Source of the DNA: an uncultured Planctomycetota bacterium
Lineage (GTDB): Bacteria; Planctomycetota; Planctomycetia; Isosphaerales; Isosphaeraceae
Direction of reading: 5' to 3'
Length of the DNA stretch: 64,000 bases
Assembly: GCA_963845755.1 (NCBI GenBank)
Contig: CAWJTV010000026.1
Coordinates: 64,001-128,000 of the forward strand
Position 1 is the first letter of the stretch. Each line of letters begins with the position of its first letter. Shown piece by piece: positions 26,609-46,812 of this stretch. Both the position numbers and the translations under genes were made by a program. The notes under the pieces were generated by a model, which made no database searches, was not told the DNA's origin, and saw nothing but the letters and a program-made list of their open reading frames with translations.

Positions 26609-27211
26609 ATGCGAACATATACCAAGAATTATCGACGTGCGCAACTGCGGGTTGAATCACTCGAAGGCAAGACTCTGCTCTCGACGGGCTCCGTGATGCA
26701 TCACGTCGCGCCCCACGTGGCGGTCGCTCCGATCGTTGCTCAGGCCACTCCATTCAGCGGTACGTTGCAGGGGTCCTACAGCAACGTGAACGTGCCCGGC
26801 TTCTCGCATATTCTGAGTTATGCGACCTCCGGCACCTTAAACGGCGTTGGATCGACACGTCTGCACGGCACACTGATTCCACGCGGTGGCGCTCGGCCGC
26901 ACCGGCTGATCGGCCAGCTCCTCATGCACAACAACGGCGGCTCGATGACGGTCAATGTCTACCAGTCGACCACGCCGGGAAATTACACCTACAAAGTTGC
27001 TCGAGCGAGAGGCGGCGACACGGCGTTCCGAGGCGGTACCGGCGAGCTGACGATTACCCAGGTCCCGTCCTTCAGCGCCGCCCTTCTACGTCTCCGGTCA
27101 AACGACGATGACGTTCACTCCGGCCTGACAACCAGTCATCATGAGAAGAACCATGTGAATTTCGATGGATATTTGGCCAAACCCGCCCTGGCGCGTGGCA
27201 GCTTGGCCTAG
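26609..27211 (+). CDS. Small secreted protein with LEPR-XLL-type leader
   Basis: RRAQLRVESLEGKTLLS leader; beta-rich body; true end may be TGA at 27128 after a frameshift near 27080. Confidence 0.75.
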   Translation: MRTYTKNYRRAQLRVESLEGKTLLSTGSVMHHVAPHVAVAPIVAQATPFSGTLQGSYSNVNVPGFSHILSYATSGTLNGVGSTRLHGTLIPRGGARPHRLIGQLLMHNNGGSMTVNVYQSTTPGNYTYKVARARGGDTAFRGGTGELTITQVPSFSAALLRLRSNDDDVHSGLTTSHHEKNHVNFDGYLAKPALARGSLA

Positions 27212-27282
27212 AGCGTAGAACGAGACCCTTTCATGATGCCCCGTTCCACAACCCGCCTCAATCCCTTCCCGAAGAGATTGAG

Positions 27283-27558
27283 GTGACGGATCCGACTCAC
27301 CCCCTCTTCCGCCGGCGTTTTGCCGTCGTCTCGATCTCCCGACCACCCCACGGCTCCGGCCATGTACTCGTCGCCTATCGCGACGGGATGCAGCTCCGCA
27401 TCCCCGTCGCCTCGACCAGCGCGATGGTAAGCCAGATCACCCTTCCCGGGACAAAATGGACTCCGGACGCCATCCGTGAGCTCCTTTCCCTGATCCAGGA
27501 GGATGAAACGCCGTGTCCCTGCCCCAAGACGTCTGGTCGAAGCTCCCCAAGACCGTGA
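27283..27558 (+). CDS. Small recombinase-associated protein (Y4bD/DUF5372-like)
   Basis: VTDPTHPLFRRRFAVVSI...RIPVAST...IRELLSLI pattern, as seen upstream of this recombinase class. Confidence 0.65.
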   Translation: MTDPTHPLFRRRFAVVSISRPPHGSGHVLVAYRDGMQLRIPVASTSAMVSQITLPGTKWTPDAIRELLSLIQEDETPCPCPKTSGRSSPRP

Positions 27559-27746
27559 AACAGCAAGCCATCGACGACATCTCAGCGATCTGCGCGGAGG
27601 TTATTCATGAATATCTCAGAACTCGTAACGGCTTTCCACCGGGGCCGCCAGGCCCTGATCTACATCCGACAGTCCAGCCCTCATCAGGTCCTGAACAATC
27701 TGGAGAGCCAACGGCTCCAGTACGATCTCAGGCAACGCGCCTGTGA
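27513..27746 (+). CDS. Short helical ORF overlapping ORF1 and the recombinase start
   Basis: LPQDVWSKLPKTVKQQAIDDISAICAEVIHE; contains the recombinase SD GGAGG. Confidence 0.45.
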   Translation: MSLPQDVWSKLPKTVKQQAIDDISAICAEVIHEYLRTRNGFPPGPPGPDLHPTVQPSSGPEQSGEPTAPVRSQATRL

Positions 27747-29652
27747 GTGCGGCTGGGATCCCCAGGACGTCGAGATCATCGATGCCGACCTGGGAAAGAC
27801 CGGCAGCACCGTCGTGGGACGCGAGGGGTTGAAGGAACTCATCACTCGGGTCACACTCGGCCAGGTCGGCATCATCTTCTCCTACGATGTCACCCGTCTG
27901 TCACGAAACTGCACCGAGTGGTATCAACTGCTCGATCTTTGCGGCTACCGTCATTGCCTCATCGGCGACCGCGATGGGATCTACGATCCCTCCACTCCCA
28001 ACGGTCGCCTTCTGCTCGGGCTCAAAGGCCAGATCTCCGAGCTGGAGCTCCATACCCTCCGGGGTCGGCTGATCGATGGCGTGCTCAAGAAGGCCCAACG
28101 CGGGGAACTGGCACTGACTCTGCCGACCGGCCTCATCCGTGATCCGCTGGGACGCGTCACCAAGCATCCGGATCGCGAGGTCCAGGGACGCATCGATCTG
28201 GTCTTCGCCACGTTCCTCCGCCTGCGGTCCATTGCCAAAGTCGTCCGGTACTTCAAAGAGCGAAACTTGCTCATTCCTCGACGCGACTCCTTCGGCGACG
28301 TCGCCTGGAAGAGGCCCTCGGTCGCCGGTCTGGGCTCGACCCTGAAGAATCCCGCCTACGCGGGCGCATTTGTCTACGGGCGCACCCGCTCGGTCCGAAC
28401 CGGTCCCAACCAGCCGGCCGTGCAGAAACTCCAGCCGATGGCCGGGTGGCGAATCCGCATTCCGGACAAGTATCCGGCCTACATCGACTGGGCCACTTAT
28501 GAGAAAATCCAGGCCATGATCCGCGACAATTACAGCGAGTATGATCGCAATCGGACCCGAGGCGTTCCCCGGCCGGGAAAAGCCTTGTTGCACGGCATTG
28601 TCTACTGCGGCGAGTGCGGCCACCAGATGGTCGTGCAGTACAAACCGAAAACTCACTATATCTGCAATTATTTGCGCCAACAACATCAGGTCCCGGTTTG
28701 CCAGTACCTCCCCGCGGACCCGATCGACGACCATGTCGTGCAAGTCTTCTTCGCCGCCTTGGCGCCTGCGGAGCTCGACATCTACGAGCGCGTCCTGGGG
28801 TCTCTCTCGGAGGAACACGAACAGATCCATCGGGCACGGCAGCAAGAGTTGGAACGACTTCGTTACCAGGCGCGACTGGCCGAACGCCAGTTCCAGAAGT
28901 CCGATCCAGACAACCGGCTGGTGACGGCGGAACTCGAGAAGCGTTGGGAGATCGCCTTACGGGAACTCAAGCAGGCCGAAGAGGCGCGGGCACGAGAAGA
29001 GCCGCAGCCAGCGACCTGGGCTCGACTCGACAGCGCGACACGCCAGGCGCTGAGTGACGCCGGGCGGACGATCCCGGAATGGTGGGAGGCCAACCGCTTC
29101 TCACAGGAGCAGAAGAAGGCGCTATTGCGATGCCTGATCGACAAGGTCGTCGTTGATCGGAGGGTCCCGGACACGGTCCACTGTCGCGTCGTCTGGAAGG
29201 GGGGTGACGTGTCGGAGGCCGACCTCGCAGTCACGGTGGGCGCCTTGGCCCGACTCTCAGGCAGCCGAGAGATGGAGGACACGATCCTGCGGCTGGCGCG
29301 GGAAGGGAAGACCGATGAGGAGATCGCCGGCCAGTTGACCCAAGATGGCTTCCGTTCGCCCAGGGGCCGAACCGTTCTGCCCAGCACGGTTCAGCTCCTT
29401 CGCCTGAGCCACGGTCTGATGCGCGACCGCCATCAATCGCACCCACGCCAGATCCCCGGCTTCTTGACAGTCCCACAGGTGGCCATGAAGCTGAATATCC
29501 CACGACACTGGATCTATGATCGAATCCACAATGGAACAATTCAAATTGACATCAATTTCGAGAGAAGGACTTACCTGTTTCCCGACACTCCCGAGACCCT
29601 GGCCCGGTTCCGGCAACTGCGGGCAGGAGATCTCAACAACTTACGTTTTTAG
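27607..29652 (+). CDS. Large serine recombinase (resolvase, recombinase, Zn ribbon, C-terminal HTH)
   Basis: YIRQSS catalytic serine, DVTRLSRN, LKNPAYAGAFVYGR, CGECG...YIC...C, coiled coil, LTVPQVAMKLNIPRHWIYDRI. Confidence 0.93.
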   Translation: MNISELVTAFHRGRQALIYIRQSSPHQVLNNLESQRLQYDLRQRACECGWDPQDVEIIDADLGKTGSTVVGREGLKELITRVTLGQVGIIFSYDVTRLSRNCTEWYQLLDLCGYRHCLIGDRDGIYDPSTPNGRLLLGLKGQISELELHTLRGRLIDGVLKKAQRGELALTLPTGLIRDPLGRVTKHPDREVQGRIDLVFATFLRLRSIAKVVRYFKERNLLIPRRDSFGDVAWKRPSVAGLGSTLKNPAYAGAFVYGRTRSVRTGPNQPAVQKLQPMAGWRIRIPDKYPAYIDWATYEKIQAMIRDNYSEYDRNRTRGVPRPGKALLHGIVYCGECGHQMVVQYKPKTHYICNYLRQQHQVPVCQYLPADPIDDHVVQVFFAALAPAELDIYERVLGSLSEEHEQIHRARQQELERLRYQARLAERQFQKSDPDNRLVTAELEKRWEIALRELKQAEEARAREEPQPATWARLDSATRQALSDAGRTIPEWWEANRFSQEQKKALLRCLIDKVVVDRRVPDTVHCRVVWKGGDVSEADLAVTVGALARLSGSREMEDTILRLAREGKTDEEIAGQLTQDGFRSPRGRTVLPSTVQLLRLSHGLMRDRHQSHPRQIPGFLTVPQVAMKLNIPRHWIYDRIHNGTIQIDINFERRTYLFPDTPETLARFRQLRAGDLNNLRF

Positions 29653-29676
29653 GAGGGTATCAAGATGCCCGATCCA

Positions 29677-29760
29677 ACAGATGGGTTGCGCACGCTCTGT
29701 CAGCCGATGTTCTGCGGCCTGAAGGGCCGCGGGAACCTAGCCCAGGGTGAAACCCTGGGA
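29677..29760. repeat. Partial MITE/REP unit related to 46517-46812
   Basis: ACAGATGGGTTGCGCAC is the reverse complement of the subterminal 46784-46800; followed by GCGGCCTGAAGGGCCGC and CCCAGGGTGAAACCCTGGG hairpins. Confidence 0.75.
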
Positions 29761-30134
29761 CTCGTGCTGCGGAAGACCTGATCGAGGGCCCAACGGAGGT
29801 AGCCGCATCGAGTTCGCTAGGGGATCAGGCAACAAATCCCGCTCTGTCAGATTCCTGACGTCGATTCATCACTCAAGCTTGCAGGTTCGCTGGTGTTTCA
29901 CAGAAATCTTGAAAAATGCTGCGACCCCGTTCGGTTTCTCGAACTTGTGGTTCTTATCAATGAGGTCGTGACGCACTCGATCGCCGAACGCACTCAGGGA
30001 AGGAAGAACGGACGTATCGGACGTCCCGATCTCAGGGGTCTCAATATCCTCGTTCGTATGCGGCCATCCGCACGACCAGGCCGGTGAGGTCGAAGGGATC
30101 CTCGGACCTGGACTGACAAGGAAACGGCCCGATC

Positions 30135-46516: not shown

Positions 46517-46812
46517 CTAGAGCGCATATCAGTTGCGTTGCGCACGCGATCGCTGCTGGGGAACTTCTCTGGCGGCCCGAAGGGTCGCGGGAACCCAGCC
46601 CGGGGTGGAACCCCGGGAACCGGTCCCACCGCGCCCCCCTCTTGCACCCTGGAGGGGTGCCGGAGGGCTCTCCTGCGGCCCTTCAGGCCGCCGGAGTTGC
46701 GAGTTGGCCGCACGGCCCCCGGGTTCCACCCGGGGCTGGGCTCCTGGCGGCCCTTCAAGCCGCCAGAAATCGTCTCTCCTCGTGTGCGCAACCCATCTGT
46801 GAAGCGCTCTAG
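46517..46812. mobile_element. MITE with CTAGAGCG...CGCTCTAG ends carrying an inverted REP-like doublet
   Basis: CTAGAGCGC...GTTGCGCACGCGA and TCGTGTGCGCAAC...GCGCTCTAG; internal CCAGCCCGGGGTGGAACCCCGGG and an inverted copy. Confidence 0.8.

Follow-up and report, generated by a model that had tools for sequence, protein, structure and literature searches.

A compact serine-recombinase element of the Isosphaeraceae with a small gene that appears to be split by integration

The 64,000-nt stretch analyzed here (the window; positions 64,001 to 128,000 of the forward strand of contig CAWJTV010000026.1, assembly GCA_963845755.1, from an uncultured member of the Isosphaeraceae, Planctomycetota) contains a 2459-bp mobile element at 27219-29677 with an AA dinucleotide at either end, as delimited by a second, identical copy and by empty paralogous sites in the same genome. 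Judged from its sequence, it is an autonomous, insertion sequence (IS)-like element with three overlapping genes only, all read on the plus strand: open reading frame 1 (ORF1), ORF2 and a large serine recombinase. At the right end, a Shine-Dalgarno (SD) sequence (29651-29657) overlaps the recombinase stop codon TAG (29650-29652) and precedes an ATG, and the stretch from this ATG to the end of the element (29665-29677; ATG, 8 nt and AA) matches in frame, across the joint of the two ends, the ORF1 body that begins at the left end. An initial annotation of the locus had described a minimal serine-recombinase element in which joining of the ends brings the SD and ATG to ORF1, and this part of it stands in a changed form; the leader peptide that it proposed as the link does not.

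The host genome (14.3 Mb in 49 contigs; G000) holds three full copies of the element by DNA search, those of the window and of contigs C11 and C6, together with a partial copy on C9. The C11 copy shows no differences from the window copy across 2459 nt, the C6 copy is 74% identical to it, and the window and C11 loci lose identity directly outside 27219 and 29677. The flanks of the C11 copy are found at five further loci, 100% identical over 300+300 nt and with only AA between them. The six loci carrying these flanks (100%, 600 nt) lie at C42:404201-404802, on C36, C34 (two loci), C7 and C11, and only the last is occupied by the element. As the empty sites read left flank-AA-right flank, insertion adds 2457 bp without target-site duplication, as is characteristic of a serine recombinase that crosses over at 2 bp. 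The limits of C11 identity and the five empty sites thus define an element that spans from the AA at 27219-27220 (the core of the left attachment site, attL, where C11 identity begins) to the AA at 29676-29677 (the core of attR, where it stops), and by this comparison it is at the AA dinucleotide that crossover is placed.

The integrated ORF1 body (27220-27558) encodes a DUF5372-like protein of 116 aa from its codon 5 through to the stop and is open from element base 2, with a start codon and SD both absent upstream; as listed from its GTG, ORF1 occupies 27283-27558. When the ends are joined computationally, the ATG at 29665, with its first 3 2/3 codons, falls in frame with ORF1 through the AA, and the resulting ORF has 116 codons in all three full copies (window, C11 and C6). 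We aligned 18 copies, consisting of 15 of 20 fetched relative loci and the three copies of this genome, and observe in 16/18 a junction ORF that is open, in frame and 115-118 aa long, with TAGGAGGG or TAGAAGGGG ahead of it; the remaining two are without this right end, one running off its contig (L062) and the other differing there (L076). The alignment of further copies that the initial annotation had proposed thus bears out the right-end SD (16/18) and not the leader or its overlap with the GTG. The position of GTG 27283 reads GTA in 15/18 copies and GTC in one, with GTG found only in the window copy and its twin, and the leader ATG is ATA in 10/18. Upstream of the GTG codon lies a conserved PEE[IV]EVTDPTHPLF segment within which the differences are synonymous, and the other copies have their first in-frame ATG, GTG or TTG not before about residue 60. 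The junction frame is also kept in the G029 clade and in the G011/G055/G077 clade, where the distance between ATG and core is 14 nt instead of 11 nt, a difference that keeps the frame, and the recombinase stop overlaps the ATG; in the G053/G031 clade, the joint falls within a run of four A's, which makes the frame undecidable there. Public gene calls of 18 inspected homologues start in the flanking DNA, at codons unrelated to one another, and come together at the joint. From these alignments, the right-end ATG is best read as ORF1's own start codon, which in the integrated element would point uselessly into the flank (29665-29781), an outward orientation that the initial annotation had recognized.

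The split extends well beyond the host. A scan of the genomes of 185,579 species returned 71 loci in five phyla, namely Planctomycetota, Chloroflexota, Alpha- and Gammaproteobacteria, Cyanobacteria and Acidobacteriota. Under strict rules, 30/71 loci are in frame and 2/71 are out of frame (L134 and L136); a further 9 fail the left-window limit only, 8 have no right-end box, 18 are cut by a contig end and 4 have no ORF1 motif. With a wider left window, the nine left-window failures (L135 and eight copies from Wolbachia) prove to be in frame, and the split is in frame in 39 of the 41 wider loci with both ends recognizable. The looser rule misplaced L109, L121, L129, L158 and L159 and was retained for those nine loci alone, the Wolbachia junction frames being checked by eye. 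The core dinucleotide is mostly AA among the wider loci, and the split gene is still in frame where the core is GA (L133) or TT (L125); an element-sized Wolbachia contig (L143) seems to use CA. Relatives of ORF1 are present in 18/100 other genomes of the same family, with 5-9 ORF1 matches per related genome.

The eight Wolbachia copies (L146-L153) are 2445 bp long, 99.96-100% identical to one another and located on the complete chromosome of the Wolbachia endosymbiont of Cantharis cryptica. Despite the AT-rich DNA, the ORF1 frame is open from the second base of the element, and ORF2 is open for 79 codons. Several of these copies have left or right flanks in common, in differing combinations, which suggests rearrangement between copies, and in L146, the copy that was translated, the recombinase is interrupted by an in-frame stop that leaves parts of 569 and 117 aa. 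Other irregular copies occur among the relatives. In the C6 copy (C6:34137-36596, L083) and in L066, the recombinase N-terminus is in another frame than the rest and the element measures 2460 nt against 2459; these are probably dead copies or homopolymer sequencing errors. In L072 (G011:C98), a single open frame of 719 aa joins the N-terminal portion of ORF2 to the recombinase, apparently as the result of a deletion.

The sequences next to the core form a pair of arms. At the computed joint they are imperfect inverted repeats centered on TCG-AA-CGA, symmetric about the core and matching at 11-16 of 24 positions across 16 copies, with a GGG[TC]ATCA[AT]G motif 21 nt from the AA on both sides. 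The left arm (P', 27221-27245, which includes 27231-27241) and the right arm (P, 29652-29675, which overlaps the SD and ATG of ORF1) are inverted repeats of each other and are predicted to bind the recombinase, with GGGTATCAAGA at 29655-29665 set against the reverse complement of 27231-27241. Because the motif is near-palindromic, it reads as a direct repeat too: the direct repeat between the 60-nt ends matches at 10/11 positions, which is equaled by 5/500 shuffles. Seen in this symmetry, the 11-bp "core" of the initial annotation is a presumptive near-palindromic recombinase half-site inside the element.

The window copy splits a repetitive extragenic palindromic (REP)-like repeat of about 105 nt with the consensus start CTAGAGCGCATAACAGATGGGTTGCGCAC, which matches the genome at more than 50 places, frequently in inverted pairs spaced by 140-180 nt, and folds stably (z -3.1). 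Its first 11 nt remain at the left as 27208-27218 and the rest of the target lies at the right as 29678-29767, where more than 50 genome matches start exactly at the AA; 19 other repeat copies read uninterrupted as ..CTAGAGCGCAT-AA-CAGATGGG... The right remnant also has a sub-threshold minus-strand match to Rfam Acido-Lenti-1 at 29715-29759 (34 bits against a gathering score of 37), and a further site of the repeat lies at 46530-46800 of the window. Most other insertions share a coding target. In 13/16 complete insertions, the antisense flanks encode ..D[IL]...[FYC]FD.I.H and the crossover falls on the TT within the codon for Phe; the remaining three (window, L065 and L073) lie elsewhere than in this YFD motif. 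The empty paralogue of the C11 site on C42 (L081) is inside a 615-aa ORF with RVT_1, Intron_maturas2 and HNH domains, which adjoins an Rfam Intron_gpII match and to which the element of the C11 site is opposite in strand, and at the C6 locus Rfam gives a match to group-II-D1D4. The reverse transcriptase (RT) identity of the target is supported by Pfam/Rfam at the C11 and C6 sites and by the motif at the other eleven. Two soil-metagenome runs (X1 and X3) contain contigs with the identical element on the C11 flank and on a third flank from outside the assembly, which, read by eye, also shows a YFD-type motif; the window's own flanks are without cover in these two runs. The preferred target, as far as these flanks indicate, is the YFD-coding motif of group II intron RTs, entered in antisense.

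The recombinase (27607-29652, 681 aa) has its predicted nucleophile at Ser23 within YIRQSS. Pfam assigns Resolvase (PF00239, E 2.3e-19, residues 16-167), Recombinase (PF07508, 2.5e-15) and Zn_ribbon_recom (PF13408, 6e-8), and the best NCBIfam model is XisF-like, accompanied by a weak excisionase-type helix-turn-helix (HTH) match. Y19, R21, Q22 and S23 of the Y-x-R-x-S motif are invariant in 9/9 aligned sequences, as are Cys 334/337 and 365 in the same nine-row alignment. Past the zinc domain, a conserved C-terminal extension of about 150 aa (residues ~536-681) contains two HTH-like segments, one of them of a weak excisionase/MerR type, with a weak HTH_17/excisionase-like match at residues 619-647; this extension may read an extended target or serve as a built-in accessory domain. 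The catalytic domain, the two DNA-binding domains (DBD1 and DBD2), the 2-bp core and the inverted arms are all recognizable, and on these features the enzyme is classed as a large serine recombinase.

ORF2 (27513-27746, 77 aa) has an SD of its own (GGAGG, 27497-27501) and overlaps both the 5' end of the recombinase gene and the 3' end of ORF1 (by 46 nt in the window and 46-49 nt across the planctomycete copies that were inspected). Over the first ~34 residues of its product, relatives share the pattern QDVW..LP..RQQ.IDDI..I..EV.HE. The Pfam scan gave nothing for ORF2, for an upstream 200-aa ORF or for the 38-aa ORF that runs outward from the right-end ATG, and the NCBIfam scan gave nothing for ORF1 or ORF2. 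The ORF1 product matches Pfam DUF5372 (PF17342) at E 0.008, below cut-off, and two divergent members score 16.6 and 17.1 bits against a cut-off of 25; a precomputed PF17342 match or the DUF5372 name is attached to 6/101 ORF1 homologues among the matches listed, and 29/30 of the nearest Atlas clusters are DUF5372. Its AlphaFold model (mean predicted local distance difference test, pLDDT, 76; core 89-96) is a small SH3/KOW/Tudor-like barrel with a helix. Foldseek against the PDB returned no match at E <= 0.001, and VIA-align wide returned generic SH3/KOW/Tudor barrels only (Z ~5), so the fold names no function. We found no sequence or fold match between ORF1 and the solved recombination directionality factors (RDFs).

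When ORF1 was co-folded with the recombinase, the interaction prediction score from aligned errors (ipSAE) was 0.63 as the median of three runs, against 0.00 for the best of three controls; the runs agree in at least 71% of contacts, with a partner pLDDT of at least 63. This ipSAE mark is reached by 116/157 solved complexes and 2/215 mismatched pairs, counts that apply only roughly here because our own alignments were used (A2 with 9 rows for the recombinase, A1 with 64 rows for ORF1). The predicted contacts on the recombinase involve the zinc ribbon (333-339), the proximal limbs of the coiled coil (384-400 and 474-489) and the second half of the zinc domain (502-535), and those on ORF1 include the invariant DPTHPLF motif. 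Known RDFs bind the junction of DBD2 and the coiled coil, and AlphaFold2-multimer places RDFs there too, according to the passages of PMC12286644 that deal with them. The model thus supports, and does not show, binding of ORF1 at the zinc-domain/coiled-coil junction, which we regard as the most likely mode, and the initial annotation's suggestion of a directionality or accessory factor gains from this predicted complex.

We consider it probable that these features together describe an autonomous element that crosses over at AA, whose integration splits ORF1 and whose ORF1 product acts as a circle-specific directionality cofactor. Within this reading, comparison of loci supplies both ends with their AA core, the empty sites, the motif at the target and the conserved in-frame split. 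The recombinase would cut at both AA dinucleotides and excise a 2457-bp circle, restoring the target, and the circle would re-insert at sites resembling its joint, preferably antisense in the YFD motif of an RT gene. Integration would divide ORF1, leaving the SD, the ATG and 3 2/3 codons at the right end and the remainder at the left, such that full-length ORF1 could be translated only from the circle or from a head-to-tail tandem. Its product would then bind the recombinase as a cofactor of the circular state and might bias it toward re-integration, for instance by overriding an excision-promoting ORF2. The circles, the silence of ORF1 when integrated, its binding and the direction of its effect are what we infer. 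An integration-promoting role is favored because the integrated element, with ORF2 and the recombinase, has the task of excision, and the circle, to which ORF1 is added, has that of integration. That ORF1 promotes integration or counters an RDF could well be so, at a likelihood somewhat short of even; a conventional RDF acting in trans on sibling copies comes second, and autoregulation or a host-directed role make up the rest. More tentative still is the broad picture of a widespread, undescribed, cargo-free family, mainly of group II intron hyperparasites, in which a topology-gated ORF1 flips the recombinase to integration as an "anti-RDF", the reverse of phage logic; taken whole, we think it rather doubtful.

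Other explanations account for part of these data. The initial annotation had the unit bounded by its 11-bp repeats without terminal inverted repeats, placed recombination within TCA(T/A)GATGCCC, and let excision set the SD before a 16-aa leader coupled to the GTG of ORF1. Every sequence feature on which it draws exists in the window: the 11-mers TCATGATGCCC at 27231-27241 and TCAAGATGCCC at 29660-29670, AGGAGG at 29651-29656 and ATG at 29665-29667, the 16-codon ORF from ATG 27236 with its TGA overlapping GTG 27283, and the two small ORFs followed by a 681-aa recombinase with a (weakly matching) C-terminal HTH; the 10/11 repeat is also non-random. However, the identity to the C11 copy continues 12 nt to the left of and 7 nt to the right of these repeats, imperfect inverted arms are present at the ends, and the real empty sites differ in form from the predicted one and hold none of the DNA expected under this model, which they refute. 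The predicted circle junction and empty site have 0 matches each in the genome, and with the leader ATG replaced in 10/18 copies and the GTG absent in 16/18, the proposed coupling is hardly tenable. An equally remote prospect is that the right-end SD-ATG is an outward translational signal that drives flanking host DNA. The integrated SD-ATG does open a 38-codon ORF into the flank, but the flanks vary by site and usually represent an RT gene in antisense orientation, and in the window this ORF runs into the REP-like repeat.

ORF1 might instead be an ordinary gene of integrated copies with an internal or non-canonical start, the right-end ATG being in frame through constraint on the attachment-site arm. 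The GTG at 27283 is available for this in the window copy and its twin, the conservation of the ORF1 N-terminus overlaps the binding arm, and an in-frame arrangement arises by chance once in three per independent lineage. This account is nevertheless quite improbable given that the other copies have no in-frame ATG, GTG or TTG before about residue 60, that the (near-)invariant PEE[IV]EVTDPTHPLF lies upstream of the supposed start and at the predicted interface, that the frame survives 3-nt length differences on either side of the joint, and that an SD is always found ahead of the right-end ATG. Unlikely, if less so, is that ORF1 is a conventional, excision-favoring RDF made from a rare first circle, which would release sibling copies in trans, as a burst, until recombinase bound at the joint stops its synthesis and lets integration follow. 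The predicted ORF1 site is that used by known RDFs, many hosts hold 5-9 copies, and the binding arm overlaps the SD and ATG of ORF1, all of which suit this scheme. It requires, however, a first excision that is independent of the RDF, a continuously expressed RDF would inhibit recombination between the attP and attB sites, and in the integrated element ORF2, a small protein that is intact, could serve in excision. The reading that we prefer remains that of a circle-specific cofactor encoded by a gene that integration divides.

Several observations weigh against this preferred reading. The circle joint (in either version) and the empty window site have 0 matches in the genome, of which the assembly represents the integrated form only, and in four runs (X1-X4) no contig bridges the circle joint or the empty window site, among assembled contigs in which rare forms would be invisible. 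Searches for sigma-70-like promoters returned none in 27000-29900 and none across the computed joint, in a phylum whose promoters may differ; three weak sigma-70-like matches (8-of-12) lie 186-214 nt upstream of the joint. Two of the 41 resolvable loci are out of frame (L134 and L136) and eight loci are without the right-end box. The window copy has the in-frame GTG at 27283, from which it could make a truncated, 91-aa ORF1 while integrated. In the N-terminal region of ORF1, the codon-position test finds only a modest third-position excess, and the conservation of this region partly overlaps the binding arm and may reflect constraint on the DNA. The co-fold score is the model's own confidence, obtained with our own alignments and with only 9 rows for the recombinase. 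Finally, a canonical RDF made after excision should hinder re-integration, which makes the direction of the ORF1 effect a guess. Apart from these points, one further joint was seen in the runs, at 28518-28589 within the recombinase gene (one contig, depth 2.2). The element-sized contigs L120, L130, L143 and L118 were considered as assembled circles and rejected, as their ends hold a few flank bases and do not overlap.

Among known systems, the closest in outline are Tn4451/Tn4453 of Clostridium, which likewise combine a large serine recombinase (TnpX), an excised circle and the activation of an element gene by end joining. Tn4451 is about 6 kb long, carries cargo and mobilization genes, has GA ends and forms a non-replicating circle, at whose joint a promoter is reportedly formed. 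There the joint provides a promoter for the recombinase, whereas in the window element it would complete a separate cofactor ORF by supplying the SD, ATG and 4 codons. The element further differs from the Tn4451/Tn5397 type in its size (2.46 kb), in having AA rather than GA ends, in its lack of cargo and in its DUF5372 gene. An attachment site within an element gene is known from the SSV1-type archaeal integrases and from intP of Myxococcus phage Mx8, where attP lies within the integrase gene. Integration alters an element gene in those cases too, but the gene is that of the tyrosine recombinase itself, whereas in the window element the recombinase is left whole and the start is lost from an accessory gene. 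Junction-activated expression is a feature of IS circles, as in IS911, IS30 and IS110/IS1111, and circle-specific integrase promoters are described for integrative and conjugative elements (ICEs) in passages of PMC13023037 (Pcirc of ICEclc and P3'end of ICEKp1). IS circles and ICEs follow the same logic of a signal at one end joined to a gene at the other, but they join a promoter to a recombinase gene (DDE, DEDD or tyrosine), whereas the window element splits a coding sequence other than that of the recombinase.

The phage large serine integrases (SPbeta SprA with SprB, phiC31 with gp3, LI and Bxb1) share the domain set, the 2-bp crossover and the inverted attP arms, and their RDFs bind at the DBD2/coiled-coil junction (PMC12286644), where ORF1 is predicted to bind. 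A prophage keeps its RDF gene whole and expresses it to set off excision, whereas the cofactor gene of the window element would be broken by integration and yield its product only after excision. IS607 is likewise a serine-recombinase IS without target-site duplication (PMC4058570 and PMC6188088), but its TnpA has an N-terminal HTH, a C-terminal catalytic domain and little target specificity, in contrast to the 681-aa window enzyme with its N-terminal catalytic domain. Full-text literature searches returned no paper on DUF5372 and no account of this element family or of a serine-recombinase element whose start codon is split off.

If the preferred reading is true, the element would be a clean natural case of a gene gated by the integrated versus the free state via a split coding sequence rather than a promoter. 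ORF1 would represent a candidate new class of cofactor for large serine recombinases, which are widely used as genome-engineering enzymes and whose directionality control is still being worked out. The comparison also provides a compact 681-aa enzyme with defined attachment sites, a core dinucleotide and a conserved natural target, the YFD motif of RTs. For the biology of the family, these insertions imply that group II introns have DNA parasites of their own, in hosts from planctomycetes to Wolbachia.

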